Counted from the stretch's first letter, positions 41,204 to 63,959 are shown. The stretch is DNA of 64,000 nucleotides from an uncultured Gammaproteobacteria bacterium (GCA_964361785.1 CAYIBX010000002.1:21160-85159), one strand, 5' to 3'. Program-made: numbers and translations. The notes: generated by a model not told the origin, from the letters alone.

Positions 41204-43436
41204 ATGTATGAATAATAGCAAAAGTCATACAAAGTGTCAAAGAGACGAAAAGAAGAAGTTTTTTAAGCATCGAAGGCTCGTAGGAAAAAACGATCTCTTG
41301 TGTGCCGGCTGATTCTAACTTTACTGCAGTGTAGAAAGGGAAAACGATAAGCGTTTCCGCGGATTTCCCATCAATCGTTGCCTTCCAAGACGGGTGATAG
41401 GTCTGGTGGAGAATGACGAGGCACTCGGAACAGCCTTCTTTAGCCTCGACAGTGGCGCGGAAGACCATATCGCTATCTTGCGACTGGGAGGTTATTTTCA
41501 TTAGGTCACCTAAGTTACCTAGGGGGCTTAGGTAAAGAGGGGGCTCAGAAAAAAGATTGTGCCGAGTACCATCAGGAATTTGATACGTCACCTCGTCTAT
41601 CATTCGAAAATTTGGGAGTCCAGTGTTTTTGGGATAGTCTTTATCAAAAGTGAGTTTTGGGTATAAGCCTTTGGTATGTGTGTCTGATTGGATCCATAGG
41701 CGGACGACGTTGGTAAAATTTTGTTTGGAGCTGGAGATGATGGCTGGACGAATGCCTGTGGAGATATACCCATACGATAGGTTACCTATGTTGCCTAGGT
41801 GACTTGGGTCGCCTACATCAACAGTGTAAAGACGCCACGTTTTTCCGGTCATCAGAGGCTTCCAGAAGGGTTGGATGTTATCTTTGGGTAAATCGATAGG
41901 TGTCACGACATATTTTATATTGTAGAGGCGATAGTGGGCAGCTACATCTTCAGAAAAATACTGTTCGGTATCTGAATTTGGAGACCACGTTTCTGGAAGC
42001 CATGTAAGCGTCGGGATGCCAAAGGTAGACATATAAAGATACATTGGTGTTTCTGCTACGCGAAAATCTTTGCCCCACCCACCACCGCGACCAAAGTAAA
42101 CACGACTGGGATTAGTTTGTAGTTTATCGTTGATGGTTGAGAGTAAGAGAGAAGTATCGGCGTCAACGTTGGTAAAATTGTCGTTGGCTTGTTTGATAAG
42201 CGTATCGTTGTAGCTGCTGTATCGCAATGTTTGGGGGTAGACCGAAAAGATAAGAGATAAGACCAACAAGACACATAGGACTGATAAGACCAATTTGTTT
42301 AGTAATGTTGTTTTTTCAAAAATCCAATCAATTCCTATTGGGATTAAGAATAGCCCTGTGATATGGAGGCCCACGATAAAACGGGAAAGATGAAACTCTT
42401 CCATGCTGGGGATAAGGTTTACCAGTCCCCCCCATGTCGTACGGCCAAAGTAGAAAAGAAGCCAGAAGACAAACAAAATGCCAAATGCAAAATGCTGAAT
42501 GCTAAATAATGCAACAAATATGCCGACGAATACGAGAAGTGTTAGAATGGGGAAGCGGCTGAAATCAAATAGGTCGCCGTTAAAAAGATTTTTAAGCACT
42601 TCCCGATAGCCGTAGGAGTCAAATTTCCATATCGGATCCCAGACTGATATGTTGTGATAGTTGCTCCCAAGAAGAATAGGGATAATCCAGTATCCCAGAA
42701 GCAGTAAGACGCCGCCGTAAATAATAGGAAGTTTTTTTAGATGTTTGAATCCGACGATAGCAATACTAAAAAACGCTATGATTCCGATTCCCAGATGTCC
42801 TGTTGTCGTGAGGGCAAGGGTGAGTATTGCAGGCTTTATTTTTCCACGAAATGCATACGCTATTGCCAAAGGCAACCAAATCATAGCAAAAAGTTGACTC
42901 GAGAGGCCATATCCACGCCACAGAAATGATGCAGGATCTAATCCATATAACCCATCTGTGGAAAGATGGGACGCGATGAGCGCGCCGATACCTGCAGAAA
43001 TCCAAGAGAGTCCGATGATACGAAGTGCAACAAAAAGAGATAAAGGGAAAAGACAAAGCAAGAGATAGATCACGTAGTGATAATATTGAAAGAGCGATCC
43101 AAAGTGAAAAATGCGCCATGATGCGACTATGGTTATTTGGGGAAGGTGTGAGTAATAGTAGGGGAGGTTATAACCTTGTGCCCAGTTGGGGACCCAGTGG
43201 TCTGTTAAGTAAGAGAGTGAACAGAAAATAGTAAATAGTGAATGTGGACAGGTTTTGTTTGCAAAGTCCCATATTTGGTTTGTCCTATAAACGAGAGCGT
43301 ATTGAAACGTATTGTCATTTGGATCTAGTTTGGCTGTGGGCTCCTGTCGATATGTCCATAGGTTAAACCCAATGGCAAAAAGAACCATAATAATGCCAAT
43401 AAGTCTCATTAGTTTTATGTGTCCAATAGGTCTCAT
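41154..43436 (-). CDS. Large polytopic membrane protein with a C-terminal extracytoplasmic domain (GT-C-type / YfhO-like putative glycosyltransferase). Possible starts are 43496, 43436 or 43409
   Basis: Many hydrophobic helices in the N-terminal 420 aa are followed by a roughly 350 aa soluble domain. The N-terminus, MRPIGHIKLMRLIGII, is itself built from the 9-bp repeat family. Starting at 43436 leaves a 4 nt gap to the upstream gene stop at 43441. Confidence 0.45.
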   Translation of the reverse strand: MRPIGHIKLMRLIGIIMVLFAIGFNLWTYRQEPTAKLDPNDNTFQYALVYRTNQIWDFANKTCPHSLFTIFCSLSYLTDHWVPNWAQGYNLPYYYSHLPQITIVASWRIFHFGSLFQYYHYVIYLLLCLFPLSLFVALRIIGLSWISAGIGALIASHLSTDGLYGLDPASFLWRGYGLSSQLFAMIWLPLAIAYAFRGKIKPAILTLALTTTGHLGIGIIAFFSIAIVGFKHLKKLPIIYGGVLLLLGYWIIPILLGSNYHNISVWDPIWKFDSYGYREVLKNLFNGDLFDFSRFPILTLLVFVGIFVALFSIQHFAFGILFVFWLLFYFGRTTWGGLVNLIPSMEEFHLSRFIVGLHITGLFLIPIGIDWIFEKTTLLNKLVLSVLCVLLVLSLIFSVYPQTLRYSSYNDTLIKQANDNFTNVDADTSLLLSTINDKLQTNPSRVYFGRGGGWGKDFRVAETPMYLYMSTFGIPTLTWLPETWSPNSDTEQYFSEDVAAHYRLYNIKYVVTPIDLPKDNIQPFWKPLMTGKTWRLYTVDVGDPSHLGNIGNLSYGYISTGIRPAIISSSKQNFTNVVRLWIQSDTHTKGLYPKLTFDKDYPKNTGLPNFRMIDEVTYQIPDGTRHNLFSEPPLYLSPLGNLGDLMKITSQSQDSDMVFRATVEAKEGCSECLVILHQTYHPSWKATIDGKSAETLIVFPFYTAVKLESAGTQEIVFSYEPSMLKKLLLFVSLTLCMTFAIIHTYDYYKHFSSRRSQKRS
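41501..41537. repeat. In-frame 9-bp-periodic repeat copy (TTAGGTCACC TAAGTTACC TAGGGGGC TTAGGTAAAG) inside CDS 41154..43436
   Basis: Tandem degenerate 9-mers of the TAGGTNNCC / TAAGTNNCC type, read directly from the sequence. They encode ...SPLGNLGDLMK... on the minus strand. Confidence 0.5.
41777..41816. repeat. In-frame 9-bp-periodic repeat copy (ATAGGTTACC TATGTTGCC TAGGTGACT TGGGTCGCC TAC) inside CDS 41154..43436
   Basis: Four consecutive 9-mers matching TAGGTNNCC. They encode ...HLGNIGNLSYG.... Confidence 0.5.
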
Positions 43437-43440
43437 ATGA
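43395..43440. repeat. Repeat-derived sequence (CCAATAAGTCTCAT ... CCAATAGGTCTCATATG) that forms the N-terminal codons of CDS 41154..43436 (MRPIGHIKLMRLIGI)
   Basis: Two direct copies of CCAATARGTCTCAT. The ATAAGTCT / ATAGGTCT cores match the family seen elsewhere in the window. Confidence 0.4.
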
Positions 43441-45276
43441 TTATGGAAACAGTTTTGGATTGAGCCAATCCGTATGGTCATCAGTATTGCCGTCACCAGC
43501 GTCGGTCGTTTTCAGGGTAAGATTGGTTATCCCCGACACGTTGACACTCGTATGTTTCGGCAAATCAAACCGTCCCATTTTTTTTGACTGAAAAAGAAGT
43601 TTGTCATCCCCATAAATTTCAAAAATTGCCGATGCTTTGGTGCCTGATTCAGTGTCTATGCCGAAATCCGTTTCAAAGCGGGTAAAATTTTTGTTGATAT
43701 TGTATGTATATTTTGAAGGAGCATGCGAGCCCAAACCAGTGTTATAAAATGCATATTGTACGGATAATCGCGTCCAGCTATTTGGTCCTCCAAACGAGCT
43801 TTGGACCGTGCGATTAGTTTGTCTGGTGCCGTAGCTTTGTTCACTTACATACGGCGTGAGTGAGTTTAACGAAATAGGTTTTTTTGTGAATAACGGCAGG
43901 TTAAGAAAGATTAGCCCTCCTGTTATTATACTAACTGATAACAGTAAACAGTTAACCGTTAACCGTGAAGATTTGATGAGTGTGAAAAGAAAGACTCCAA
44001 AGAGCCCAAGAAGAACAAACGATGTGGTGATCGTGAAAATTGGCCCAGTAAGAAGGGACAGAAAGGGAATACCATTATTGGGATAGTTGACCACAAGCGC
44101 GGTATGTAGGTTGTAGAAATACAATACGGTAAATATTGAATAAAAGATAATAAAAAGTTTTTTATTGCGTATAAATGGTGCCCAAAGGAGGAGAAAGACA
44201 GAGAGCGGGAACGCGTAGCGGTCGTGGGATTGCGTTTGGAAAAGAAAAAAGCTCGCGTTTATGATGATGATGCCTTCAAGAAAGGTTTTTAATAGGACTA
44301 ATTTGTCTAATTTGACTGATAAGGCTAATTGGCGTATTACCGCGAATAAATAGAAACAAGAAAATAGTAGGAGCCCGACGGTTTTCGCATTCACCATACC
44401 GATGACGCTTAATTTATCTGAAGTCGCCATGCCTTTGGCCCCTGTGACGATCCACCAGAGGTTATACGCGTTTAAACTCATCCACGGGAAGTAATCGTAA
44501 TTTTCGGTAAGGGATGCAAAAATACGATCAGCATTTTTGGTAAGAATAAATTCGATGTTTAATCCGACAAAGCTTGTGAGAGCGCCGGCAATTGTTTGAA
44601 TTAAAAATTTGAAACCGCCATATTGGAACGCAAAAAGAAAAAAGAGGGGCGCATAAATCATGTTTTGCAGTTTCGTCATCATAGAAAGCATGAAGATGAG
44701 ACCTGCGACAAAGGACCAACGTTTCAGTAACGCAAGGAACGCGAGTAAGAAAATAAAAAGTCCCACACTATCCACCTGTCCCCATACAGCTCCATCGATG
44801 ATTGAAATGGGGTTTAGTAAATATCCAATACTCAATACCCAATATCCAATGGAGGGCACGGTGGGAAACCCTAGTTCTTTTGTATTCTTTCCTATATAGA
44901 GAATAATCCCTGCGATACCTATGTCAGCGAGTATGGGAAAGAGTTTGCTAATGGTAAGAAACAGAAGATTGGTATTTTTCCAGAAATCATTAAATATGTG
45001 GGGATCTTTAAAGAAGCTGTATAGTTTGACCATCGCTCCTAAGCTATACGCAAACGGCGTAGGGTAGTTATTATTCGTTGCCTTCATGCCCTCCACAATC
45101 CCTTTGTCGTATGTGGCTAGCCCCCATGATTTCCAAAACGAAATATCCGCTTCAAAGCCAGGGTTGGGGATGAGGGCTAAGCGAATGATTATCGCGAGAA
45201 CAAAGAGTAAACTGTAAATTGTTAACTGTTTCTTATCGCGCATGATTCTATCATACGAAATATGGTGCGCCTCCAC
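43441..45276 (-). CDS. GT-C fold membrane glycosyltransferase-like protein (PMT/ArnT-like) with a C-terminal NPCBM-like carbohydrate-binding domain
   Basis: A polytopic N-terminal region carries a first-loop acidic motif (PGFEADISFWKSWG). The C-terminal approximately 110 aa (FEIYGDDKLLFQ...VSGITNLTLKTTDAGDGNTDDHTDWLNPKLF) resembles NPCBM / F5-8-type lectin modules (D..DW.nP.L). Confidence 0.45.
   Translation of the reverse strand: MEAHHISYDRIMRDKKQLTIYSLLFVLAIIIRLALIPNPGFEADISFWKSWGLATYDKGIVEGMKATNNNYPTPFAYSLGAMVKLYSFFKDPHIFNDFWKNTNLLFLTISKLFPILADIGIAGIILYIGKNTKELGFPTVPSIGYWVLSIGYLLNPISIIDGAVWGQVDSVGLFIFLLAFLALLKRWSFVAGLIFMLSMMTKLQNMIYAPLFFLFAFQYGGFKFLIQTIAGALTSFVGLNIEFILTKNADRIFASLTENYDYFPWMSLNAYNLWWIVTGAKGMATSDKLSVIGMVNAKTVGLLLFSCFYLFAVIRQLALSVKLDKLVLLKTFLEGIIIINASFFLFQTQSHDRYAFPLSVFLLLWAPFIRNKKLFIIFYSIFTVLYFYNLHTALVVNYPNNGIPFLSLLTGPIFTITTSFVLLGLFGVFLFTLIKSSRLTVNCLLLSVSIITGGLIFLNLPLFTKKPISLNSLTPYVSEQSYGTRQTNRTVQSSFGGPNSWTRLSVQYAFYNTGLGSHAPSKYTYNINKNFTRFETDFGIDTESGTKASAIFEIYGDDKLLFQSKKMGRFDLPKHTSVNVSGITNLTLKTTDAGDGNTDDHTDWLNPKLFP
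44821..44850. repeat. Unrelated in-frame short direct repeat (ATATCCAATACTCAATACCCAATATCCAATGG) inside CDS 43441..45276, encoding SIGYWVLSIGYLLN
   Basis: Direct CCAATAYYCAATA repeats seen in the sequence. The peptide repeat SIGY(W/L)(V/L)L is visible in the translation. Confidence 0.4.
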
Positions 45277-45284
45277 TAGTGTCG

Positions 45285-46079: not shown

Positions 46080-46110
46080 GTATAAAGTGTAACAGATTTA
46101 CTATAGGTTT

Positions 46111-47637: not shown

Positions 47638-47680
47638 GTGAGTTTAGTCTTCACAATTATTTGAACGTATATCTGAATGG

Positions 47681-47724
47681 CTGCTACAAAATTTATACGC
47701 TATAGCGTAGAGATTTTGTAGCAG
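47681..47724. terminator. Nested hairpin. Outer 12-bp arms CTGCTACAAAAT / ATTTTGTAGCAG enclose an inner palindrome TACGCTATAGCGTA. It lies downstream (minus sense) of gene 47748..48419
   Basis: Both inverted repeats are read directly from the sequence. The element lies in the 110-bp intergenic gap between two minus-strand genes. No clear U-tract follows, so it could be a terminator, an RNA-processing site or a protein-binding site. Confidence 0.3.
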
Positions 47725-47747
47725 AAGATAGTGTCTTGAGTTCGAAA

Positions 47748-48419: not shown

Positions 48420-48980
48420 TTATTCTTTTGGTGCTTCCCAGAACTTTTTTCCTGCCGCGTCCCATGGTAATCGGTGCTCGTCAGGCTGAGCCTGATTAAA
48501 TTGATTGTTCACAAAGTAATACACATTTGCTTTTTTACCAGAGAAATTTGTTGCCCCATGCGCTACGCCGCGGGGGATATAAACAGCTATTGAATTGCCC
48601 CCGCCTAACGGAATTTTTTGAAGAACACCTTTTGTGAGAGAACCTTCGCGTACGTCCCAGAGACCCAACAGGAGATGTTCATCAGGAGGTACGTACCAGA
48701 TTTCGTCTTGTTTGTAATGAAGATGCCATGCTTTGACGGCTTTGTTGTATTGTTTACTTCTATTGATTTGGCGTACATGAAACCCTTTGATAAGTTCGGA
48801 TTCTCCCGATTCAGTTAATCGTAAGAGTTCAGAAAAGTCGCCATTCTCGCCGATGTAGTTGCGGATTTTTAACATTTGGACACCATTAATTGTCGGTTTT
48901 GGTGAATAATCCTGCTCGTATATGTTCTCTTTAAGATTTGTATCTATTGCATCGTTTGAGAGAATGCTCATGTAAAGCAT
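48420..48980 (-). CDS. rfbC: dTDP-4-dehydrorhamnose 3,5-epimerase-like cupin (RmlC/RfbC family)
   Basis: Catalytic-region motifs HLHYKQDEIWYV...LWDVREGSLTKG...IPRGVAHGATNF...YYFVNNQFN...DEHRLPWD match the RmlC pattern (His-dyad, IP.G.AHGF, Y..d..Y..e.E....dD). Confidence 0.65.
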   Translation of the reverse strand: MLYMSILSNDAIDTNLKENIYEQDYSPKPTINGVQMLKIRNYIGENGDFSELLRLTESGESELIKGFHVRQINRSKQYNKAVKAWHLHYKQDEIWYVPPDEHLLLGLWDVREGSLTKGVLQKIPLGGGNSIAVYIPRGVAHGATNFSGKKANVYYFVNNQFNQAQPDEHRLPWDAAGKKFWEAPKE

Positions 48981-49024
48981 TATCCCAATTGCGCACCTTT
49001 AAAGTCAACTCCCATACAGATAGA

Positions 49025-50662
49025 ATGAGAACTATGGTAAGAACATACATATGGAGTGTGTTGATTGTAGGGTTTTTGTTTTTTTCTCTGTCGTCGACGT
49101 TTTATGAATTGAAGCGATCAGGGGATTTGCAGCCGGATCGTCAGTTTGAACTCGTACATAATTTCCCAACGGATTATAATTTTTATCTTTCGCGCATTCG
49201 TGAAGGGTTAGAAGGCAACTGGACGAGTGTAGAGCGCTATACTTCAGAGTCCCACAGCGGGTCGTTTATTCACGAAATGTATATTCTGATGGGTCACGTG
49301 GGGACGTGGGTAAGGGTGCCGTGGCATAGGGCTGGGGATATTTATCATGTGGCACGGGTGGTTCTTTCCTTTACCTTGTTGGCGCTTATTGCAGAGTTTT
49401 GTAAGGAAAGTTTGGGAGGTAAGAGATATTGGGGCGTTTTGGGATTTATGTTGGCAGTGACTGCCTCATCATGGTCAAAGCTTGTATATGTAGACGGGGT
49501 AGCCAGATTTGGTGGCTACATGCCGTGGTGGTCTGTCATGGATAGTTTGCAGCGAATTACCTTTATCCCACATCTTTTGGCAGGACAGGCGCTTATCGTT
49601 TTTCTTATTATGACGCTTGCGACCAACAAGTTACTAAGATCCGGCAATAGTATCTTTTTGGGAATTTTGGCGTTTGTATTAGGGTTAGTGTTTCCGCCCG
49701 GACTTCTCTTTGTATATTGTGTGATGGGAGTGTATGCATTATTTCAAGGCAAGGGTATGTGGAAATTAGTCACACCATATATACTTGTTTTTCTTATTAG
49801 TGTGCCCTCTCTTGTGTATTTAGGGCTTATGACTCAGGTTTATCCGTGGAAGCGGTTAGTGGAGGTAGATACTATACGGCCGTTGCCTTTTGACTATATA
49901 GAATACGCAAAAGCTATAGGGCCTATGGGCCCCATAGGACTCATAGGACTTATATGGGCGCTTTTTCGGAAAGAAAAAGCTATGTATCCGGTAGTCGCGT
50001 GGGTGATTTCGTGGATAAGCCTCCTTTTCGTATTTAAGTTTGTCCCTGCGCAGAGTCCTTTGCGATTTTCTGAAATGATCCCGCATATTCCTCTAGGGAT
50101 TTTGAGTGCGTATTTATGTTATCAGATAGGTCACTTAGGTCGCCTAAGCTACCTAAGTAGCTTAATGAAGACAATGCCGATGGTCCTAATAGCTTTTGGG
50201 CTTTTCCATATGTATTCTTCGTTTCTTTGGCAGAAAGACTTCATAGATCATAAAATACGCGCTACGACTCCTCTGGTGCCTACAGGAAGTTATGTGATGT
50301 ACCCTTTAAAAGATTTCATCGCGGCCATAGTATTTATCCAAGATTCGACTTTAAGAGATGCTATCATTCTTTCAGAATCAACTGCAGGAAATTATATTCC
50401 TGTGTATAGCGGCAATCGTGTTTATTTGGGGCATGATAATACGGTCCGCTTTGAGTCAAAAAAAGAAGAAGCGAAGCAATTTTTTTCAGGTATTATGTCA
50501 GTCTCACAAGCGAAAGTCTGGCTTAACGAAAAGGGGATTTCGCGTGTATATTATGGCCCGCAAGAACAAGAAGATGCAGGGTTTAAAGACCTGAGCACTA
50601 AATACCCATTTTTAATCAATCGATACACTAATCCTCATGTGACGGTCTATTCTATGGAATAA
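49025..50662 (+). CDS. Polytopic membrane protein, paralog of 46111..47637 and 56446..58056 (putative GT-C-type glycosyltransferase). The track ORF starts at 48938 but overlaps the divergent rfbC-like gene
   Basis: The shared N-terminal motif is present (VHNFPTDYNFYLSRIREGLEGNWTSVERYTSE), along with many hydrophobic helices. It contains two in-frame copies of the 9-bp-periodic repeat (49922-49954 and 50126-50167). Confidence 0.5.
   Translation: MRTMVRTYIWSVLIVGFLFFSLSSTFYELKRSGDLQPDRQFELVHNFPTDYNFYLSRIREGLEGNWTSVERYTSESHSGSFIHEMYILMGHVGTWVRVPWHRAGDIYHVARVVLSFTLLALIAEFCKESLGGKRYWGVLGFMLAVTASSWSKLVYVDGVARFGGYMPWWSVMDSLQRITFIPHLLAGQALIVFLIMTLATNKLLRSGNSIFLGILAFVLGLVFPPGLLFVYCVMGVYALFQGKGMWKLVTPYILVFLISVPSLVYLGLMTQVYPWKRLVEVDTIRPLPFDYIEYAKAIGPMGPIGLIGLIWALFRKEKAMYPVVAWVISWISLLFVFKFVPAQSPLRFSEMIPHIPLGILSAYLCYQIGHLGRLSYLSSLMKTMPMVLIAFGLFHMYSSFLWQKDFIDHKIRATTPLVPTGSYVMYPLKDFIAAIVFIQDSTLRDAIILSESTAGNYIPVYSGNRVYLGHDNTVRFESKKEEAKQFFSGIMSVSQAKVWLNEKGISRVYYGPQEQEDAGFKDLSTKYPFLINRYTNPHVTVYSME
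49922..49954. repeat. In-frame palindromic repeat copy (CCTATGG-gcc-CCATAGG ACTCATAGGACTTATA) inside CDS 49025..50662, encoding IGPMGPIGLIGLI
   Basis: A 7-bp inverted repeat plus ATAGGACTY direct units, read directly from the sequence. Confidence 0.5.
50126..50167. repeat. In-frame 9-bp-periodic repeat copy (ATAGGTCAC TTAGGTCGCC TAAGCTACC TAAGTAGC TTAATG) inside CDS 49025..50662, encoding IGHLGRLSYLSSLM
   Basis: Consecutive 9-mers of TAGGTNNCC / TAAGNNNCC type. It contains the inner palindrome AAGCTAC-ctaa-GTAGCTT. Confidence 0.5.
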
Positions 50663-50664
50663 CT

Positions 50665-51417
50665 ATGTCACACACGTATCCATCATCTCTGTACACAACG
50701 ATTGCTTCTATAGAAGATGATCATTTTTGGTTTACGTCAAGAAACCGAATGATTGCTTCACTTATTCGTGCAAATATTAGAGAACCGTACACGACAAAGT
50801 CGTTTTTAGAGATAGGGTGTGGGACGGGTATAGTAATGGCCGTACTTGAAGGGCTAGGGTTTATCGCAACTGGACTTGATGTAAATACAAAAGCGCTATC
50901 ATATGCGGTCAAAAGAACGAAGGGCAAGCTGATTCGACAATCGATATTTGGATTTAAACCAAAGAAGTATTATGACATCGTTGGAGCGTTTGATGTGCTT
51001 GAGCATATACAAGATGATATGGGCTTTTTGCGCGCAAGTTATCATTTACTTTCTCCTGACGGTTATTTATTACTTACCGTTCCTGCAGGGATGCACTTGT
51101 GGTCGCCCGTTGATGTCGCTTCGGGTCATGTGCGACGGTATGCATATGAGGAACTTTCAACAAAGCTAAAAGAAGCAGGGTTTACGATACAAACCATACA
51201 GTATTGGAATTCGTTATTGCTGCCGGTATATAAACTATGGCATCAGAAGACGGGAGACAAAAAAGATGTCGTCGCGTCCCACCTTCAAAAAATGCCATAC
51301 GCCATAAACATGGTATTGAAGTGGATTTTTTTGGGAGAACTTTTTCTATCGCGATTCATACAATTCCCTAGAGGGGCAACCCTCGTTGTGTGTGCACGGA
51401 AAGGCAACGTGAAATGA
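50665..51417 (+). CDS. Class I SAM-dependent methyltransferase
   Basis: Motif I LEIGCGTGIV and a post-I acidic residue (GLDVN). Motif II/III region YDIVGAFDVLEHIQDD. About 250 aa. Confidence 0.75.
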   Translation: MSHTYPSSLYTTIASIEDDHFWFTSRNRMIASLIRANIREPYTTKSFLEIGCGTGIVMAVLEGLGFIATGLDVNTKALSYAVKRTKGKLIRQSIFGFKPKKYYDIVGAFDVLEHIQDDMGFLRASYHLLSPDGYLLLTVPAGMHLWSPVDVASGHVRRYAYEELSTKLKEAGFTIQTIQYWNSLLLPVYKLWHQKTGDKKDVVASHLQKMPYAINMVLKWIFLGELFLSRFIQFPRGATLVVCARKGNVK

Positions 51418-54771: not shown

Positions 54772-54775
54772 AGGA

Positions 54776-56404
54776 TTACCAATATTTTATAATGCAGGGG
54801 TCCTCACCCTTCCACCACGGCGTTTGGCGAGGTGTTTTATTATCCGTTCGGTTATCAAAGATCCAAACAAGTGGCGCGTTTTGTACTGTGATTGTTTTTG
54901 TCGGTGTGTGATGTAACAGGTATTCGTATGCATACGCAAAACGATAAAAGAATGATTGACGATTAAGAAGGATGACATAGTCTGAATCGTCGTACCCATA
55001 CGTATTGAGATTAGTCAGTAAATCTGGTCGCAAATATCGAGCGGCTACATCTGCTGCCATGACAATGTGTACTGTTGCGTTTATTGGGGCGTGATCGTTT
55101 ATCCATTCGACTGCATGTTTTTGTGATCCGCCCCAATAGTCGAGATCATACTTGCCAAAAGCCCCCTTGACGCCACCGACGAGCTCATTAAAGTAGGTAA
55201 TTTGAAATGGGTGATAAGAGTAAAGAGTAAAGAGAAAAGAGAAAAGAGTAGAAAAAATAAGAATAGGACCAATAAGACGAATTGGTCTTATATGATGTAT
55301 TTGTCGTATGACAACATCAAATCCTATTGCGGCGATTGCTGAAAGCGGGAAAAGCACTTCTTCAAAATGTCTGATGCCGTCAATAACCCCGATGTGGGGC
55401 AATAGATAGCGGGAAAGAGGGAGGAAGAGCCAGAGAAACAAAAGAATACCAATAGGTCTTATATGTCTTATAAGACCAATAAGTCCTATAAGGAATAATA
55501 ATAAAATTGGAATCGGCGTGGTGATACCTAAATACCAAAATGGGTAATACCATGGAACATTTGTTCCTGAGCAGTACCAAGTGCCGTTGAGAAGCACTTC
55601 TATGTTATTGGTGCCTATGGCAAACGTGCGGTAGGCGTGATCTAGCTGTGCGATAGGATTAGGCCAGAAAAACCACCAGAGAAGAAAAGCGGCAACGGGA
55701 GAGAGAAAGAAGTACCATAGCAAAGGCGTAGAGAAGCGTAGTAGGTTTCGTAGTTTAGTAAAAGAAAAATTTAAAAACAAGAGCCACGCTGCAAAAATTA
55801 CAGGGATAAAAATACTGTTAATTTTGACATTGAACGCCACGGCAAACCCCAGTGCCGCTAAAAGGAGGTCAGAGAGTCGTTTATATCTTACAAGTCGCCA
55901 TAATAGCCATATGTTGATCGCAAAAATAGCAGCTGAAGGCACATCTTTCATATTGTTATGCAGGTCGCTAAAAAATCGAGGCATGACACTTAAAAAGAAT
56001 GCAGCAAAGAGAGCGACACGTTTGTTTATCGCTTTCTTTAACAATCCATATAACGCGAGTATTCCTCCAATTCCCCAAAGAATGATGGGAAGATGGTATG
56101 CGCTATCTTGCGGGAGTATTTGTAAGAATTTATAGAGAAAAAGATAAGAGGCGACCGGAGGGATAGACATAAGCGGACCGTATGGCAAGCTCCACGCGTT
56201 TCTAGGATCCGGCTCAACGTACGGCAATATTCTTGGTTCTAGTTGTTGCCAAGAAAGCCCTAAGAGTTTTCCACCGCCGAAAAGGTGAAAGTGGAAGTCC
56301 CACGTGAGGCCATAGTCATTGATGATAAAAATGTGAACAGCAATAAGAACTGTAAAAATAACGAGAGCAGTATGCTTAGATATCCAGCGAGTAATTATAT
56401 TCAT
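54776..56404 (-). CDS. GT-C fold polytopic membrane protein (ArnT/PMT-like)
   Basis: The first-loop acidic/aromatic motif DYGLTWDFHFHLFGG is followed by more than 10 hydrophobic helices. It carries two in-frame repeat copies (55262-55295 and 55450-55491) and a purine-rich low-complexity stretch at 55200-55260. Confidence 0.5.
   Translation of the reverse strand: MNIITRWISKHTALVIFTVLIAVHIFIINDYGLTWDFHFHLFGGGKLLGLSWQQLEPRILPYVEPDPRNAWSLPYGPLMSIPPVASYLFLYKFLQILPQDSAYHLPIILWGIGGILALYGLLKKAINKRVALFAAFFLSVMPRFFSDLHNNMKDVPSAAIFAINIWLLWRLVRYKRLSDLLLAALGFAVAFNVKINSIFIPVIFAAWLLFLNFSFTKLRNLLRFSTPLLWYFFLSPVAAFLLWWFFWPNPIAQLDHAYRTFAIGTNNIEVLLNGTWYCSGTNVPWYYPFWYLGITTPIPILLLFLIGLIGLIRHIRPIGILLFLWLFLPLSRYLLPHIGVIDGIRHFEEVLFPLSAIAAIGFDVVIRQIHHIRPIRLIGPILIFSTLFSFLFTLYSYHPFQITYFNELVGGVKGAFGKYDLDYWGGSQKHAVEWINDHAPINATVHIVMAADVAARYLRPDLLTNLNTYGYDDSDYVILLNRQSFFYRFAYAYEYLLHHTPTKTITVQNAPLVWIFDNRTDNKTPRQTPWWKGEDPCIIKYW
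55262..55295. repeat. In-frame palindromic repeat copy (AATAGGACC AATAAGAC-gaattg-GTCTTATATG) inside CDS 54776..56404
   Basis: A 7-bp inverted repeat ATAAGAC / GTCTTAT flanked by an ATAGGACC unit. Confidence 0.45.
55450..55491. repeat. In-frame palindromic repeat copy (ATAGGTCTTAT ATGTCTTATAAGACC AATAAGTCCTATAAGG) inside CDS 54776..56404, encoding LIGLIRHIRPIGI on the minus strand
   Basis: Contains the 12-bp perfect palindrome GTCTTATAAGAC, the ATAGGTCTTAT arm and the ATAAGTCCTAT arm. Confidence 0.55.
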
Positions 56405-56445
56405 ATGTATGAATGTATTAGCATGTTACCATGCTAATACGTGTG

Positions 56446-58056
<1,611 letters not shown>

Positions 58057-58105
58057 AGGGACATTGTATGCAATTTTTTTGTATCATGACAGTATGGGAG
58101 AACAG

Positions 58106-59611
58106 ATGAGAACAAAGTTTCTTGAAAGGGTGGCCATGTTTGTTAGCCTTTTGGTTCTTGGTGCGTTGTTGTGGTATACGCTCCAGTTGGGATTAGTGCG
58201 ATACTTTGACGCGGATGAATTGGCATATCTTCACTGGGCGCACAACGTATTTATAGGAGAGCGGCCGTATTATGACTTTTTTTCTTACGTGCCCAGTGGT
58301 TTTATGTATGTTTTGGCTCCACTTTTTTTGTTTGTCAAAGGTGCAGAAATTTTGACTCTAGCACGATGGTTTGCATTTTTGGTAGAGCTTGGGATGGTTA
58401 TATGTCTTATAGTGATCTATAAAAATTGGCGCGGATCCTTTTTTGGGATAGTAGCCGCGATAGTTTTTTTGTTTCTCCCAATTCCTCAAGACAAATTGAT
58501 AGAAGTACGACCTGATAATCTGGCGATGCTTATTGGGCTTATGGGGCTTATAAGTCAAATAAGACTTATAGAATTTCAAAAACAACGGAGTGCGTTTTGG
58601 GCGGGATTGTTTTATGGATTGTCCCTTATTATTCTTCCAAAGACCTTGCCGCACGTTGTCTTTGCGGCAGCCATAACATTGTTGTGGTGGCGTGAGGATT
58701 GGAAAAATCGCTGGGTGTATGTACGTGAGTTTATTGTGGGCGGTATAACGCCGGTTGTTGTATTTGTGCTGTTTCAACTGGTCACTGCAAAAAGTATGGC
58801 CGAGCTTAGTACGCTTCTTTATTCACTGACAAAGCTCCCCTTTGAAGTAAATAGAATTGCAGAACAGTTTTTCATGCAACCAGATTTATTTTTTTATCCT
58901 AATAGTATCTATTATGGCGTAGGGGGCGTACATGCAGGGCTTATCGCAAATCATGCTCTTTGGCTTCTGGGACTCCTGTTTGGCGTGTATAGATTGTTTA
59001 CCCCATTTGTGCCCAATGGGAAAAAGGGGATGTTTACAGAACTTCTTCTCTCCGGATCATTCTTTATTTACGTGGCAACGTTTATACTCTGGTATCCTAT
59101 GCGGCACGCGCAGTACCTTATCCCCATTGCGCTTTTTGTGTCCCTCTACGTTGCGGACGGGATAGAACAGGCATGGAAAAAAGCGAAAACGCATACAGTA
59201 TACAAAGGAGTTTTTTGGGCATTCAGTGTTGTGAGCATAGTGTTTGGTTGGCAAATTTACCTCACGGTAACCATGCCAAAAATGGCCATGACAAACAGAG
59301 AAGACATGCGTGTCATTTACCAGAGTCAACACATGATACCAAAGGAAAGTTATGTGTTGGATTTTGTAGGATCAACGATATATTTTCGTGATCCGTATTA
59401 TGTCAGTGCGCTTCCGTTTGGACAGTACCCTTCATATCTTTCGCGACCATTGCCAACACTAAGCCGTATTCTTTCTCACACAAATACCCCGTATATCTAT
59501 GAAGGGAGATTGGATCGTATGCAGACGTTGTCCATAGAGGACCAAGTGTATATTCGTATGCATTATATTCCTTTAGAAGCTACACACTTTTGGAAAGCGA
59601 AAGGATTATAG
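58106..59611 (+). CDS. GT39/GT83-like (ArnT/PMT family) membrane glycosyltransferase. The track ORF begins at 58064, but the start at 58106 is supported by a Shine-Dalgarno-like sequence
   Basis: The DE-loop motif FDADELAYLHWAHNV is typical of PMT/ArnT-type GT-C enzymes. GGGAG at 58096-58100 sits 5 nt upstream of the ATG at 58106. A start at 58064 would lie only 7 nt from the divergent gene start at 58056. It contains an in-frame repeat at 58529-58571. Confidence 0.55.
   Translation: MRTKFLERVAMFVSLLVLGALLWYTLQLGLVRYFDADELAYLHWAHNVFIGERPYYDFFSYVPSGFMYVLAPLFLFVKGAEILTLARWFAFLVELGMVICLIVIYKNWRGSFFGIVAAIVFLFLPIPQDKLIEVRPDNLAMLIGLMGLISQIRLIEFQKQRSAFWAGLFYGLSLIILPKTLPHVVFAAAITLLWWREDWKNRWVYVREFIVGGITPVVVFVLFQLVTAKSMAELSTLLYSLTKLPFEVNRIAEQFFMQPDLFFYPNSIYYGVGGVHAGLIANHALWLLGLLFGVYRLFTPFVPNGKKGMFTELLLSGSFFIYVATFILWYPMRHAQYLIPIALFVSLYVADGIEQAWKKAKTHTVYKGVFWAFSVVSIVFGWQIYLTVTMPKMAMTNREDMRVIYQSQHMIPKESYVLDFVGSTIYFRDPYYVSALPFGQYPSYLSRPLPTLSRILSHTNTPYIYEGRLDRMQTLSIEDQVYIRMHYIPLEATHFWKAKGL
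58529..58571. repeat. In-frame repeat copy (CTTATTGGGCTTATGGGGCTTATAAGTC-aaat-AAGACTTATAG) inside CDS 58106..59611, encoding LIGLMGLISQIRLI
   Basis: Direct GGGCTTATG units plus the inverted repeat ATAAGTC / GACTTAT. Confidence 0.5.
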
Positions 59612-59654
59612 ATTCAATTGTCTAAATGGAGAAAACGTCGTATCATACCGTGTA

Positions 59655-60371
59655 ATGACTACTCAACCGATTGCATTCTCTCTTATACTTCCCTGCTATA
59701 ACGAACAGAGGCTGATTAAGGAGAGTACAGAGAGAATTATGAGCGCACTAGATGCCGGCGCGTTTACATACGAGATTATTTTCGTGGATGATAAAAGTTT
59801 TGACAAAACAGCACAGTACATAAAAAAAATCTGTAAACGATATTCGTTTTGTCGCGCTGTATTTCACGAGACGAATATGGGACGCGGGAGATCGGTCATG
59901 GATGGGATCGCGAAAGCACGGGCCGAAATAGTAGGGTATATAGATATAGATTGTGAAGTGTCTCCTGTGTATTTGCCATTTATGGTCTCTCTCGTTACAG
60001 AAAAAAAGAGCGATGTGGTTATCGGAAAGCGTTTTTATCGTTCTACCTTAGGATCAATAATGAGGGAAGTGTTTAGTCGCGGGTATCGCTGGCTAGCAGA
60101 CACCATGGTAGAGACGGGAGGAGTAGATACAGAGTCAGGATTTAAGGTGTTTCGAAAGAAAAAAATTGTACCCATTTTTGAATCTATAGAGCATCAGGGA
60201 TGGTTTTGGGATACAGAAATTATGGTGTATGCCAAACGGGCGGGATTAAAAATATCAGAAGTGCCGGTACTTTTCCTTCGCCGGTTTGATAAACATTCAT
60301 CCGTCAATATAGTCAAAGATACAGTAGAATATCTTATACAGCTTATTCGGTTTTCTAGGTCGCTTAAGTAA
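59655..60371 (+). CDS. GT2 polyprenol-phosphate glycosyltransferase (DPM1/GtrB/ArnC-like)
   Basis: FSLILPCYNE, EIIFVDDKSFDKT, GRGRSVMDGIAKA and GYIDIDCEV correspond to the GT-A DxD and acceptor-loop motifs of Dpm1/GtrB-type enzymes. Such enzymes make the lipid-linked sugar donors used by GT-C enzymes. Confidence 0.75.
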   Translation: MTTQPIAFSLILPCYNEQRLIKESTERIMSALDAGAFTYEIIFVDDKSFDKTAQYIKKICKRYSFCRAVFHETNMGRGRSVMDGIAKARAEIVGYIDIDCEVSPVYLPFMVSLVTEKKSDVVIGKRFYRSTLGSIMREVFSRGYRWLADTMVETGGVDTESGFKVFRKKKIVPIFESIEHQGWFWDTEIMVYAKRAGLKISEVPVLFLRRFDKHSSVNIVKDTVEYLIQLIRFSRSLK

Positions 60372-60395
60372 CCTAGGTAGCCTAAGCGACCTATA
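60356..60395. repeat. Palindromic repeat copy spanning the stop codon of the GT2 gene and the whole intergenic spacer up to the start of the acetyltransferase gene (CTAGGTCGCTTAAG-taacctaggtagc-CTAAGCGACCTAT)
   Basis: A 12-bp inverted repeat AGGTCGCTTAAG / CTAAGCGACCT with one mismatch, and an inner CCTAGG palindrome. The TAA stop at 60369-60371 lies inside the element. The last six codons of the GT2 protein (RFSRSLK) are element-encoded. Confidence 0.55.
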
Positions 60396-60928: not shown

Positions 60929-60967
60929 TAGCATTATTCCTTCCAAAACTGCCTCATAAAAAATGCC

Positions 60968-61924
60968 ATGAAACCATATTTGTCTGTCATTATTCCCTAT
61001 TATAATTCTCCAGAAAAGTTGGAGAGACTTCTTCTATCAATTGCGAAAAGTAAAAAGGCGCTGCCATATGAAATTATTATTGTCGATGACGGCTCAATAG
61101 AAAAATTTAAAACAAAACTAAAAATTATTCGACTTCCTCATAATAAAGGTCCGGCAATTGCAAGAAATAGAGGGGTAGAAGCGGCAAAGGGAGAGTTTGT
61201 CGTGTTTTTGGATGGTGATGTAGAGGTGTTTGCCGATACCCTTTGTGAGATCGGCAAAGTATTTACTGATGACCCTGATGTGGTGGCTCTAACCGGCGTA
61301 TGGGTGAAGGAGCAACAGTCCAAAGATTTTTTCCCCAACTTTAAAGCGCTTCGGGATTGGAGTTACTGGATAAACGAGCGGGATAAAAGTGGGTATTATT
61401 TTCTTTTCTCTACGCGCATTGCAGCGATTAAAAAGGCGGTGTTTTTGCGTTTGGGTGGGTTTGATGAGACGTATCCAGCTCCACTAGTAGAAGATATAGA
61501 GCTCACGTATAGAATTGCGCGTCGATACGCAATAATTTTTGCGCCACAAGTGCGGGTTCGGCATGAATTCGAGAGTTTCTGGCCGATAGCAAAGAAATAT
61601 TTCTTACGAGCATACTACTGGACTAAGCTGTATACGAAGCGTAAAAAATTTGATCCGGTCGCTACCACGCTTGCTGAGGCCTTAACGACTCTATCTGGTG
61701 TAGGGGTAGTCCTTGTGTTTATAGGTTATCTAAGTCACCTAAGATACCTAGGTTACCTATGGGCGGTAGTGTTGGTGTTCCACATCCTCCTCGTGCGGAA
61801 ATTTTTGGTCTTTGTCTATCACGAAAAAGGATTGGTATTTATGCTCAAAAGTTTTGTGATCGGACTTTTTCTTTACTGTTTTATCTTTTCAGGCGTTTTG
61901 ATGGGGAAAATCAAGAGCCGTTAG
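60968..61924 (+). CDS. GT2 family glycosyltransferase with a C-terminal membrane segment
   Basis: LSVIIPYYNSPEKLERLLLSI, YEIIIVDDGS, LPHNKGPAIARNRGVEAAKGEFVVFLDGDV. Two hydrophobic helices at the C-terminus contain a 9-bp-periodic repeat copy (61721-61762). Confidence 0.75.
   Translation: MKPYLSVIIPYYNSPEKLERLLLSIAKSKKALPYEIIIVDDGSIEKFKTKLKIIRLPHNKGPAIARNRGVEAAKGEFVVFLDGDVEVFADTLCEIGKVFTDDPDVVALTGVWVKEQQSKDFFPNFKALRDWSYWINERDKSGYYFLFSTRIAAIKKAVFLRLGGFDETYPAPLVEDIELTYRIARRYAIIFAPQVRVRHEFESFWPIAKKYFLRAYYWTKLYTKRKKFDPVATTLAEALTTLSGVGVVLVFIGYLSHLRYLGYLWAVVLVFHILLVRKFLVFVYHEKGLVFMLKSFVIGLFLYCFIFSGVLMGKIKSR
61721..61762. repeat. In-frame 9-bp-periodic repeat copy (ATAGGTTATC TAAGTCACC TAAGATACC TAGGTTACC TATGG) inside CDS 60968..61924, encoding IGYLSHLRYLGYLW
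   Basis: Four consecutive TARGNNACC 9-mers. The outer ATAGGTTA ... TTACCTAT arms are near-inverted. Confidence 0.5.
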
Positions 61925-63849: not shown

Positions 63850-63933
63850 CCCGTCAACGATTCAGCTTTTTGGTCGTAAACTGGTACTATGTTTGAACGA
63901 AATATTGAAAAATCCTTAAAACATAAACGTTAA

Positions 63934-63959
63934 ATTGTAGGTCTTATTGTAGGTCATAT
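63934..63959. repeat. Intergenic direct-repeat copy of the family core (ATTGTAGGTCTTAT TGTAGGTCATAT)
   Basis: Two tandem TGTAGGTCWTAT units lie in the non-coding region after the last gene. They show the element family exists outside coding frames. Confidence 0.4.

Follow-up and report, generated by a model that had tools for sequence, protein, structure and literature searches.

Tandem 9-bp palindrome arrays within membrane-protein genes of a groundwater CPR bacterium

Relation to described palindromic repeats

Rickettsia palindromic elements (RPE) are, in the accounts of Ogata et al. (2000) given in PMC2996958 and PMC3733652, palindromic repeats that lie in frame within functional genes, in segments that tolerate them; related protein-coding palindromic repeats occur in Wolbachia and Methanocaldococcus jannaschii. 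The arrays described here, found in the window (the whole 64,000-nucleotide stretch of DNA that was analysed, which comes from a groundwater candidate-phyla-radiation (CPR) bacterium), resemble RPE in being in-frame palindromic repeats able to form a stem-loop, present in several copies per genome and distributed in a lineage-specific manner. RPE, however, are about 100-150 bp long and are true insertions with a family consensus, whereas the present arrays measure 27-45 bp, are tandem and 9-bp-periodic, have only a degenerate 9-bp unit in common, mostly replace orthologous sequence of equal length and keep their slot across orthologues. REP/BIME sequences, which are associated with RAYT transposases, carry a conserved GTAG or CGTC tag at one end (Di Nocera et al. 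2013, PMC3733652), and occasional intragenic REPs are read in frame and encode 20-30 residues (PMC3733652). As imperfect palindromes of 20-40 bp that form species-specific families at gene ends and between co-directional genes they are akin to our arrays, but they are mainly extragenic and downstream of genes, whereas the window arrays are almost all intragenic with an internal 9-bp periodicity, and the orthologous slots of the arrays are conserved with compensatory change. Inspection of the flanks of all 12 arrays revealed no GTAG or CGTC tag, and Pfam searches of the 17 non-giant ORFs (~70 kb of genome) gave no match to a transposase or RAYT. PARCEL repeats (DUF285/TIGR02167; 2010, PMC2996958), which are defined by a protein HMM, have a unit of 25 residues (75 nt) and are strung together in long tracts that account for most of the ORF, whose function is unknown. 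They too are tandem coding repeats with dyad symmetry in the DNA, in membrane-targeted proteins and with a punctate phylogenetic distribution; the unit here, by contrast, has 3 residues (9 nt) and is repeated 3-5 times within otherwise ordinary enzymes, and Pfam scans of all host proteins gave no match to DUF285.

Ribbon-helix-helix proteins also have targets made of short palindromic or oriented units that adjoin one another at fixed spacing: dimeric MetJ binds cooperatively to met-boxes (8-bp palindromes in 2-5 copies), and the omega-repressor recognizes heptad operator arrays. This likeness is an analogy only, in which symmetric half-sites change together if the specificity of the reader shifts; the MetJ and omega arrays are promoter operators outside coding sequence, whereas the spacing here is 9 bp and a stretch of 22 kb holds a dozen arrays. 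DNA uptake sequences (USS/DUS) are single 9-12-mers that occur about once per kb in a roughly even spread and evolve by molecular drive, and competence machinery is present in CPR bacteria. Again by analogy only, such motifs accumulate in situ in coding regions, in tolerant frames and with no change in length, and form inverted pairs at gene ends, but the arrays described here comprise 3-5 units, cluster in membrane-protein genes and are absent from a 40-kb gene.

Arrays and host genes in the window

Each array consists of 3-5 units of 9 bp, in which a degenerate palindrome is joined to a single spacer base, and is therefore self-complementary DNA. Type A units have the form CTTATAAG+N (CT-TATA-AG+N) and are read L/P-I-G/R, type B units have the form ACYTARGT+N (AC-YTAR-GT+N) and are read L-S/G-x, and the only sequence common to the copies is the degenerate unit TARGNCYTA or TARGTNACY. 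Stems of 11-16 bp are predicted in arrays of 35-45 nt. The best complementarity in the type A arrays of the window lies between units rather than within each 8-mer, and the spacer bases of type B arrays are complementary at mirror positions in only 2 of 28 cases (5-6.7 expected). Defining an array as TARG at an exact 9-bp period in three or more of 4 units, with either strand allowed, we counted 12 in the window against 0.025 +/- 0.16 expected from Markov-3 simulations, and a peptide-pattern search blind to the DNA recovered the array sites only, so that a genome-wide codon-bias artefact is rejected. The palindromic 9-bp arrays are a real feature of the window. All 12 lie within 41.5-61.8 kb, with none in the 40.4-kb giant ORF (0/12, binomial p=5.7e-6) and none in the 6.4 kb past the end of the window, in agreement with the clustering that had been proposed; 11 are entirely within a CDS, the remaining one being the gene-junction copy at 60356.

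The original prediction had listed 14 loci, with cores, peptides and an in-frame reading that are correct for the window. Eleven of these loci (41501, 41777, 49922, 50126, 51775, 52380, 52599, 55450, 58529, 60356 and 61721) pass the TARG criterion or are clear members. On the minus strand, the 780-aa polytopic membrane ORF at 41154..43496 contains a type B array at 41502..41546 with a TARG run of 4 (units TAGGTCACC TAAGTTACC TAGGGGGCT TAGG...; peptide EPPLYLSPLGNLGDL), whose folding z relative to synonymous recodings is -1.7 for the sense and -2.9 for the antisense strand, and a degenerate type B array at 41777..41820 (peptide VDVGDPSHLGNIGNLS; folding z -3.0). At the N-terminus of the same ORF, 43395..43440 (units ATGAGACCT ATTGGACAC ATAAAACTA ATGAGACTT ATTGGC) is a degenerate relative that has the peptide periodicity MRPIGHIKLMRLIG but zero TARG units and no excess folding (z=+1.0). 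Two minus-strand candidates were absent from the earlier list: 42258..42293 (peptide LVLSVLCVLLVL, inside a TM helix) passes the criterion through TARG at 9-bp period on the plus strand (TAAGACCAA CAAGACACA TAGGACTGA TAAGACCAA) and is a weak candidate, which has no hairpin and shows no excess folding relative to synonymous recodings (z=+0.5), and 44288..44332, in an NPCBM-domain membrane protein, was picked up by a generalised unit scan as a possible AATTAG-variant array of low confidence (units CCAATTAGC CTTATCAGT CAAATTAGA CAAATTAGT; third frame, peptide RQLALSVKLDKLVLLK), with no excess folding of the sense strand (z=+1.4).

Most of the remaining arrays are on the plus strand. The 574-aa membrane ORF at 48938..50662 carries a type A array at 49917..49955 (peptide IGPMGPIGLIGLIW), conserved together with its peptide in orthologues L128 and L152, and a type B array at 50126..50171 (peptide IGHLGRLSYLSSL; TARG run of 4, both strands), whose folding (z=-3.6) was equalled in 0/500 recodings and whose site reads ISDLSHLRYLGKL in L128, while L152 lacks the array and has ~27 gap columns across the site. 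Three arrays occupy the YfhO-like ORF at 51390..53435: a type A array at 51775..51813 (peptide PIGLIRPIRPIS; z=-2.0) with a perfect 11-bp stem (ATAGGTCTTAT / ATAAGACCTAT), replaced in L128 and L126 by unrelated sequence of equal length; a type A array at 52381..52425 (peptide IGIISLIRHMRPIRG; z=-1.5) in a loop that is hypervariable in L129 and L152; and a type B array at 52599..52645 (TARG run of 4, both strands), which is read in an alternative frame (peptide DRLPKSPRVLRSL), shows the strongest folding excess of all (z=-4.0) and has counterparts in the use of an alternative frame in homologues L144, L150, L154 and L160. The GT39/PMT_2 gene at 54776..56404, on the minus strand, has two type A arrays, termed site 1 (55450..55500; peptide LLFLIGLIGLIRHIRPIG) and site 2 (55262..55300; peptide IHHIRPIRLIGPI); the latter belongs to the family and is hairpin-forming, but has only two TARG units. 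Further along the plus strand, a type A array lies at 58524..58570 in a 515-aa membrane ORF (58064..59611; peptide AMLIGLMGLISQIRLI) and a type B array at 61721..61766 in the C-terminal TM region of the GT2 gene at 60968..61924 (peptide IGYLSHLRYLGYL).

Between these two, the type B array at 60356..60395 links the GT2 gene at 59655..60371 to a hexapeptide-transferase gene on the plus strand. It had been described as intergenic, yet the final five codons (SRSLK) of the GT2 gene and its TAA stop (60369-60371) lie in the array, which stops 2 nt short of the next gene's ATG (60395) and has a predicted hairpin of -23.4 kcal/mol. The other copy described as intergenic, at 63934..63959 upstream of a TPR gene, is a 13-bp-period direct repeat, ATTGTAGGTC(TT)ATTGTAGGTC, that fails the periodicity test, has only the 10-mer TAGGTCTTAT in common with the type A core and was rejected as a member.

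The host proteins match PMT_2, YfhO, GT2 and NPCBM only in Pfam, and the earlier statement that copies are always within membrane glycosyltransferase-like proteins describes the window, where the host genes encode polytopic membrane proteins, but not other CPR genomes, in which arrays also occur in soluble four-helix-bundle proteins, secreted proteins and intergenic spacers, the last accounting for about one-third of them. Related arrays are present across many CPR lineages, with a patchy distribution, and a YTARGTNAC array recurs in distant CPR classes. In several genomes, arrays at gene junctions extend from the stop of the first gene to the ATG of the second and take the place of the Shine-Dalgarno spacer. 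In an AlphaFold model of the GT39 protein (pLDDT 81, the only host protein that was modelled), each of the two arrays corresponds to a helix end, a basic turn and a helix start: at site 1 helix 298-313 ends, the turn RHI follows and helix 317-334 begins, and at site 2 a helix end leads through an IRPIR turn to the next helix.

Replacement in place and constraint on the DNA

The copies had been predicted to be inserted in frame in the manner of RPE. Syntenic orthologues L128 and L126, however, hold sequence of the same length at 7 CDS array sites, the host proteins do not exceed their array-free orthologues in length, and some replaced sites keep conserved residues, as at 58524, where the equal-length orthologous sequences have G-L..Q-I-R in common. 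Within coding sequence the indels relative to L152 are limited to 50126, 52381 and part of 55450, which lie in hypervariable loops, and the junction copy at 60356 is the only one that is clearly extra DNA. Judged from these alignments, the arrays are mostly not insertions. Most orthologous clusters contain 0-2 arrays per 21 kb, compared with 12-14 per 22 kb here, and some copies (L131, L138 and L096) look decayed. Close orthologues differ at site 2 by one-unit (3-aa) indels, and such indels were seen only between species. The source groundwater well yielded six contigs with identical sequence over 10.8-14.3 kb of the array region (five are at 100%, while L002 has 3 substitutions), so that no ongoing array activity is visible; a contingency locus or VNTR-type coding microsatellite was rejected on this identity and on the differences between the units of an array.

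One slot can be written differently from genome to genome. The GT2 C-terminal slot (61721) holds a type B array in the window, type A-TATA in L129 and type A-AATT in L142, and at the GT2/hexapeptide junction (60356) the window has type B and L129 has type A, the two genes overlap at ATGA in L152 and L128, and a plain 17-nt spacer separates them in L126 (20 nt from the first stop-codon base to ATG). Genomes differ in the dialect of the central tetramer, which is TATA, AATT or CATG; in L142, 4/4 arrays use AATT, although elsewhere in its locus CTA, CCA and ATT make up 5%, 18% and 41% of their codon families. Concordance of dialect within genomes reached 27 of 34 pairs (15.7 expected, p=0.005) in 7 genomes with manual class calls, L144 and L140 being mixed and the window having one possible AATT array (44288). 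L169 carries three near-identical intergenic copies.

The original prediction also placed the element at the DNA level, with no dependence on protein selection, and here the alternative frame at 52599, the stop-to-start copy at 60356, rare codons, folding and compensatory synonymous changes all agree with it. Codon usage is skewed in arrays compared with sequence outside them (ATA 72% versus 30%, AGR 84% versus 21%, CTA 33% versus 9%), and 11 of 13 arrays fold better than their synonymous recodings (Stouffer Z=-5.6). At site 1, where the array can be followed with gradual compensatory change into orthologues with as little as 53% protein identity to the window protein, the same hairpin is present in 13 distinct orthologues, with 83% of cells paired (28-37% in slid controls) and a covariation score of 0.284 against 0.128 in shuffles (0/500). 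Third-codon columns there change on both sides, as in CTT-ATA-AG, CTA-ATT-AG and CTC-ATG-AG, the last including a change from Ile to Met, and through such compensatory changes orthologues retain the palindrome as CTTATAAG, CTAATTAG or CTCATGAG. Mismatches of the G.T and A.C kind are balanced on the sense strand (112 versus 108 over 96 CDS arrays, p=0.84; 11 versus 12 at site 1 alone), and sense and antisense strands fold equally well; because the sense strand has no bias of G.U over A.C, the constraint looks symmetric and DNA-level. Rfam covariance models gave no match to an array in 41-64 kb at E<=1. Orthologues with the same peptide and no palindrome had been named beforehand as evidence for an ordinary protein motif: the same peptide does recur at the same position at 55450, 49917 and 50126, but many of these orthologues carry a different palindromic solution, and the peptide is kept at only 3 of about 12 array sites. 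The conserved peptide of site 1 shows that protein selection acts there too. We conclude that constraint on the DNA, and not protein selection, maintains the palindromes, and we hold with good confidence that the arrays are palindromic features of the DNA rather than insertions or a protein motif.

Explanations for the arrays

Our best explanation, description and mechanism together, has a probability of about 0.45 in our estimate. The mechanism taken by itself, which we hold slightly more tentatively, is a trans-acting, symmetry-reading DNA process that would create, homogenise or select arrays genome-wide, while replication slippage would add or remove whole 9-bp units. The simplest reader would be a homodimeric sequence-specific DNA-binding protein, or an enzyme specific for both structure and sequence of DNA, whose target would be tandem palindromic sites 9 bp apart; a DNA-level target of a sequence-specific protein, one of the alternatives in the original prediction, is the reading now favoured. 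None of the 17 non-giant ORFs (~70 kb of genome) resembles a DNA-binding protein or transposase, and the between-unit complementarity of the type A arrays in the window is more in keeping with a real hairpin than with tandem dimer sites, which counts against this mechanism. Protein selection at site 1, the identity of the same-well contigs and the size of the dialect sample (7 genomes) are likewise counted against it, as is the confinement of arrays to membrane-protein genes in the window, which could simply reflect where the peptide is tolerated.

A selfish mini-element of RPE or REP type, its hairpin copied by a cognate enzyme such as RAYT or an IS200-type HUH transposase into new sites and over older copies in the same permissive slots, and persisting where the in-frame peptide is harmless, is unlikely. 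It would account for the extra DNA of the junction copy relative to the ATGA overlap of L152 and L128, the presence or absence of some CDS copies relative to L152, the different array types in one slot of close relatives, the genome-specific sequence families reminiscent of REP/RAYT pairs and the near-identical copies of L169, and REPs within genes are on record from other bacteria (PMC3733652); but most CDS copies replace equal-length sequence while keeping residues (G-L..Q-I-R at 58524), host proteins are not lengthened, the copies have only the degenerate 9-mer in common, with neither a consensus nor terminal inverted repeats, target-site duplications or a GTAG/CGTC tag, the 17 scanned ORFs include no transposase, and the array of site 1 changes gradually and in a compensatory fashion down to 53% identity. 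That the arrays are instead functional mRNA hairpins, which might pause ribosomes at TM-turn-TM boundaries, couple translation of the GT2 and hexapeptide genes or stabilise the mRNA, is quite unlikely: the folding beyond synonymous recodings, the covarying hairpin, the structural boundaries in the one modelled host protein, the abundance of rare codons such as AGG and CTA and the replacement of Shine-Dalgarno spacers by stop-to-ATG arrays in several genomes would all suit it, yet G.U and A.C are equally frequent (112 versus 108; 11 versus 12 at site 1), both strands fold equally, spacer bases avoid complementarity and genome-specific dialects are not predicted by an RNA-structure function. Most orthologous clusters, moreover, have no arrays at these positions, so that expression of these genes does not depend on arrays.

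Equally improbable, in our judgement, is a local mutational by-product of hairpin-promoted slippage and quasi-palindrome template switching that has neither trans-acting specificity nor function. One-unit indels among close orthologues, the location in hypervariable loops, the patchy distribution with decayed-looking copies (L131, L138, L096) and perfect Watson-Crick complementarity free of G.T bias, as template switching would give, count in its favour; on the other side, the units within an array differ at spacer and R/Y positions and are therefore not recent slippage products, the arrays draw on no more than two or three palindrome families where many other stop-free palindromes would be tolerable, non-homologous arrays of one genome have a common dialect, and the YTARGTNAC array recurs across distant CPR classes. 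An ordinary conserved protein motif or codon-bias artefact with no meaning at the nucleic-acid level is largely refuted and very improbable. The conservation of F-L-I-G-L-I-x-L-I-R-x-x-R-P-I-G at site 1 in many orthologues, some of them with non-palindromic codons (L131, L138, L154), and the mapping of arrays to a defined structural element would be explained by it, whereas the alternative-frame copy (52599), the junction copy (60356), codon choice that opposes genome usage, compensatory third-position changes that include Ile to Met, folding beyond synonymous recodings (Z=-5.6) and unrelated peptides in orthologues at most array sites would not.

Under the favoured reading of a symmetry-reading DNA process, arrays would fill a limited set of permissive slots, one of which is the stop-to-start gene junction. 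They stay in frame because 9 is a multiple of three and because the palindromes happen to spell Leu/Ile/Pro-Ile-Gly/Arg/Ser. The peptide would be a tolerated by-product that protein selection may fine-tune, with Gly in the membrane half and Arg or His in the turn.

Nonamer arrays in a surface-glycosylation cluster

The window is contained in the groundwater metagenome contig Hain_H43_01um_R2_47 (ENA ERZ1292632, 116.5 kb, Hainich well H43), and its 49.7-64.0 kb portion is matched by six independently assembled contigs, each over 10.8-14.3 kb, of which five agree at 100% and the sixth, with three substitutions, at 99.98%; among these six Hainich well H43 contigs we saw no phase or length variation and no rearrangement between arrays. 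Homologues of the GT39 protein carry the labels Woesebacteria, Gottesmanbacteria or Patescibacteria, indicating that the host is a Microgenomates-type bacterium of the candidate phyla radiation (CPR). The first 40 kb are filled by an uninterrupted giant ORF of 13,468 aa (210-40616, + strand) without palindromic nonamer arrays, and the surface-glycosylation cluster at 41-64 kb is rich in polytopic GT-C-like proteins; its products include PMT_2, YfhO, GT2 with C-terminal transmembrane (TM) helices and an NPCBM-domain membrane protein. Just past the window end, downstream of this cluster, the stretch L001 (14309-20717) holds Fic, AbiEii and three AAA_14/DUF4143 ATPase genes and resembles a defence or toxin-antitoxin neighbourhood, from which arrays are absent.

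Every array comprises 3-5 units and is self-complementary, with predicted stems of 11-16 bp. Type A arrays read (CTTATAAG+N)n, equivalent to the 9-bp degenerate palindrome TARGNCYTA, and encode L/P/H-I-G/R/S, and type B arrays read (ACYTARGT+N)n and encode L-S/G-[N/D/H/Y]. The array at 51775 has a perfect 11-bp stem, and the one at the gene junction at 60356 has a predicted folding energy of -23.4 kcal/mol. In the type A arrays of the window the best pairing falls between units, not inside them; because complementarity there is largely between units, unit-level 8-mer palindrome detectors, both strict and wobble-tolerant, miss the window arrays. A hairpin scan allowing only Watson-Crick pairs recovered only three arrays, plus terminator-like intergenic palindromes. 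Near-perfect intergenic palindromes at gene ends (40626-40657, 47681-47724 and 56413-56442; stems 12-18 bp, loops 4 nt) look like terminator or REP-like hairpins and are unrelated to the arrays in sequence; the palindrome at 47681 gave rise to a spurious Rfam miRNA match.

Three or more TARG tetranucleotides spaced exactly 9 bp apart form 13 runs when both strands are counted, against 0 in Markov simulations, and a relaxed objective criterion (≥3/4 units, either strand) returned 12 arrays versus 0.025 expected. All array positions in the window fall at 41.5-61.8 kb, with none in the giant ORF (binomial p=5.7e-6) and none in the 6.4 kb past the window end. The original prediction had listed 14 loci, of which 11 proved to be clear members and 55262 a weaker one; 43395 retains peptide periodicity only, and 63934 is a 13-bp-period direct repeat that does not belong. 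Two further weak candidates, at 42258 and 44288, lie outside that list. Array density is very uneven, with 12-14 per 22 kb in the window and 6 per 15 kb in the compared stretch L160, and most orthologous clusters have 0-2 per 21 kb; the total is 26 arrays in 500 kb, nearly all of them within polytopic membrane proteins.

Orthologue comparison and constraint at the nucleotide level

We compared the window with the recovered clusters L128, which is fully syntenic (~68% amino-acid identity), L126, L127, L129 and L152. The parallel originally drawn with in-frame Rickettsia palindromic elements (RPEs) did not survive this comparison, since at seven array sites the orthologue sequence is equal in length and different in content, and the host proteins are no longer than array-free orthologues. 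Some copies are indels relative to L152, within loops of family-wide hypervariable length, and the junction copy at 60356 is clearly extra DNA, the corresponding position being an ATGA stop/start overlap in L152 and L128 and a plain 17-nt spacer in L126. On the idea that arrays mark recombination breakpoints, BLAST identity profiles against L129, L152 and L128, which resolve poorly, displayed no obvious mosaic boundaries at arrays. The same loops (columns ~225-290 and 357-435 of the GT39 orthologue alignment) contain, in other orthologues, different inserts that are low in complexity and variable in length, such as 'NTKHEILNKN...FHLNLVKFSD' and 'AARFPSLKRG...AAEQNNF', which suggests further in-frame repeat DNA families in CPR membrane-protein loops.

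The claim that the feature exists at the DNA level, by contrast with a protein motif, was borne out by several observations. The 52599 copy is translated in another frame, giving DRLPKSPRVLRSL, and the 60356 copy provides the stop of the upstream gene and terminates 2 nt short of the ATG of the next. In-array codons are skewed to the palindrome (ATA 72% vs 30%, AGA/AGG 84% vs 21%, CTA 33% vs 9%), and folding is more stable than in 500 synonymous recodings of the same peptide in 11 of 13 arrays (combined Z=-5.6). Further evidence comes from site 1, the array at 55450-55500 in the GT39/PMT_2 gene (54776..56404), whose peptide F-L-I-G-L-I-x-L-I-R-x-x-R-P-I-G is found again in many orthologues, diverged down to ~53% identity with the window protein, and is encoded by three palindromic codon solutions, CTT-ATA-AG, CTA-ATT-AG and CTC-ATG-AG, the last of which turns Ile into Met. 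Across the gap-free alignment of 13 distinct orthologues, 83% of cells were paired in one hairpin versus 28-37% with slid partners, the covariation score was 0.284 versus 0.128 +/- 0.021 in shuffles (0/500), and both-sided, compensatory changes fell at third-codon columns; we conclude that the palindrome is maintained at the nucleotide level. A DNA-blind search for the peptide pattern returned only these array sites, with none in the 13,468 residues of the giant protein. Although the site 1 peptide recurs among orthologues, we find it very hard to credit that the arrays are a protein motif and nothing else; within cell-surface glycosylation enzymes, nucleotide-level constraint overrides codon usage, even to the point of replacing Ile with Met.

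We mapped both arrays of the GT39 gene onto an AlphaFold model of its protein (mean pLDDT 81, pTM 0.86). Site 1 encodes the last part of helix 298-313, the R-H-I turn and the first part of helix 317-334; site 2, the array at 55262-55300 in the same gene, leads from a helix that ends at residue 371 through the turn I-R-P-I-R into the helix that begins at residue 378. Hydropathy puts the remaining arrays at the boundaries of hydrophobic segments or close to them, save 41502 and 41777, which sit in a region without predicted TM segments. From the positive-inside rule we infer that the array-encoded basic turns are cytoplasmic, and the placement of Gly in the membrane half and of Arg/His in the turn would be set by protein selection. 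The mechanical GTG start (43496) of a 780-aa ORF runs into the upstream gene, and its true start is likely the ATG at ~43431-43433, inside a degenerate array (MRPIGH...). For the hexapeptide gene that follows the 60356 array, gene callers differ on the start (177 aa vs 134 aa). Arrays yield spurious 'low-complexity' peptides and can blur the calling of starts and stops (the junction at 60356 and the N-terminus at 43395 are examples), which CPR annotation pipelines should heed.

Genome-specific dialects and wider distribution

Among close relatives, one position may carry different array types. The slot in the C-terminal TM region of GT2 is occupied by a type B array in the window (61721); L129 and L142, another relative, have type A arrays there, with TATA and AATT cores respectively. 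At the GT2-to-hexapeptide junction, the counterpart of the window's type B array is a type A array in L129 (81% nucleotide identity). Non-homologous arrays of one genome tend to have their central tetramer in common: L142 has four AATT arrays, including one in a soluble protein of 638 aa, two CATG arrays are present in L144, and ATA-type cores occur in the window, L129, L151 and L155. Within-genome tetramer concordance reached 27 of 34 pairs versus 15.7 expected (p=0.005). Codon usage does not explain the shared tetramers, since in L142 the codon-family shares of CTA, CCA and ATT are 5%, 18% and 41% outside arrays and essentially 100% inside.

Scanning one genome per species with the type B unit, we found that the CPR lineages with imperfect arrays are many (Gottesman-, Davies-, Levy-, Shapiro-, Roizman-, Collier-, Chisholm-, Berkel- and Saccharibacteria) and that one Shewanella and several MAGs titled 'uncultured Gammaproteobacteria' have them too; the scan also picked up unrelated perfect 9-bp microsatellites in other phyla. 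The arrays lie in polytopic membrane proteins and secreted proteins, and some take up the whole spacer separating two co-directional genes; the first unit then contains the stop of the upstream gene, and the array finishes at the ATG of the downstream one. In several CPR lineages (L008, L010, L013, L019, L031, L068, L096 and L117), a ~200-aa soluble four-helix-bundle-suffix protein (TIGR04258 + PF05635) has two type B arrays (LSNLSNL-like), both placed at conserved positions in its loops. In L068 the frame of this protein extends across a third array and into an N-terminal segment that resembles a pilin, and an O-antigen-ligase-like TPR membrane protein (2577-4688, - strand) on the same stretch has different repeated peptides, SPNLNQSP / ISTNLHLS / ISPNLHLSPSISINLHQS, probably another in-frame DNA repeat. 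A distant relative, L169, holds three near-identical AATTAG-period-9 arrays (ATTAGAAATTAGGTCAATTAGGTTAATTAG...; 8051-8083, 15017-15047 and 17813-17844) that are probably non-coding, being covered only by stop-free stretches of 12-36 aa, and act as a dispersed, REP-like repeat would, their flanks being conserved. The MAG CAYHCX01 ('uncultured Acidobacterium sp.'; L028, L069, L070, L107 and L049) contains perfect (TARGGTGCC)n 9-bp tandem repeats, at or within ~50 bp of contig base 1 in four stretches and ~1.7 kb in on the fifth, which may be assembly-breaking or terminal repeats; they are unrelated to the imperfect arrays.

An Rfam scan of 41-64 kb at E<=1 returned no family covering the arrays, and our literature search retrieved no prior description of them in CPR and nothing relevant for 'four helix bundle suffix'. 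The known systems closest in concept are RPEs, intragenic REPs (RAYT-associated palindromes; PMC3733652) and PARCELs (DUF285 coding repeats; PMC2996958), from each of which the window arrays depart in at least one tested defining feature; we class them among 'protein-coding palindromic repeats', as a variant new to that kind. GTAG/CGTC tags were looked for at arrays and not found. A phage origin is unlikely, as imperfect arrays account for only 5 of 97 type B pattern matches in viral contigs. We dropped a DGR-type origin, with NAC codons variable at their first position, because the template's other adenines do not vary; in the scanned ORFs we noted no gene for a reverse transcriptase. An uptake-sequence reading was rejected as the main explanation because the 40-kb gene lacks arrays.

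Competing explanations and implications

We conclude, with a probability of about 0.8, that the arrays are a DNA-level family of tandem palindromic nonamers in permissive coding slots and a gene junction, neither an ordinary protein motif nor RPE-type insertions. Predicted folding could suggest functional mRNA hairpins, which would tolerate G.U and avoid A.C on the sense strand; across 96 distinct CDS-embedded arrays, however, no sense-strand bias was found (G.T 112 vs A.C 108, p=0.84), nor at site 1 (G.T 11, A.C 12). Sense and antisense strands fold equally well, the MFE asymmetry tracking the G-rich + strand and being uninformative, and mirror-position spacer bases of type B are not complementary (2/28 vs 5-6.7 expected; not enriched, if anything depleted). 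The lack of strand bias, the equal folding and the non-complementary spacers make the constraint look symmetric and DNA-level, and we judge mRNA hairpins quite improbable. The constraint looks to act on palindromic cores, not on maximal hairpin stability, with between-unit pairing in the window type A arrays as the counterpoint.

A REP/RPE-like mobile hairpin element limited to tolerant slots, a reading to be set beside both the extra DNA at 60356 and the equal-length orthologue sites, is in our view unlikely. Purely local slippage with template switching, to be weighed against both the 9-bp indels and the tetramers shared by non-homologous arrays, appears decidedly so. The mechanism that we favour, tentatively and at somewhat short of even odds, is a genome-specific, symmetry-reading, trans-acting DNA process that would create, homogenise or select arrays; the candidate reader would be a dimeric binder or a structure-plus-sequence-specific enzyme, and the 9-bp indels would arise by slippage of whole units. 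More speculative, and rather doubtful, is an undescribed CPR sequence-specific DNA system in which a fast co-evolving symmetric reader, either a dimeric DNA-binding protein or a hairpin-plus-motif-specific nuclease/recombinase, recognizes tandem palindromic nonamer sites in lineage-specific dialects, with sites placed on purpose at gene junctions and within genes for membrane proteins and four-helix-bundle proteins. If true, such a system might serve chromosome-to-membrane organisation or cassette recombination in surface-glycosylation islands.

A large part of bacterial diversity belongs to the CPR/Patescibacteria, whose cis-acting DNA elements are almost unstudied. Should a trans-acting reader exist, it would constitute a new system, DNA-protein or DNA-enzyme, that is confined to one major uncultivated radiation, and the genome-specific dialects would let phylogenetic profiling find it. 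If there is no reader, the arrays would be a clean natural case of palindrome-driven evolution shaping membrane-protein turns, in which a DNA hairpin encodes a helical hairpin.
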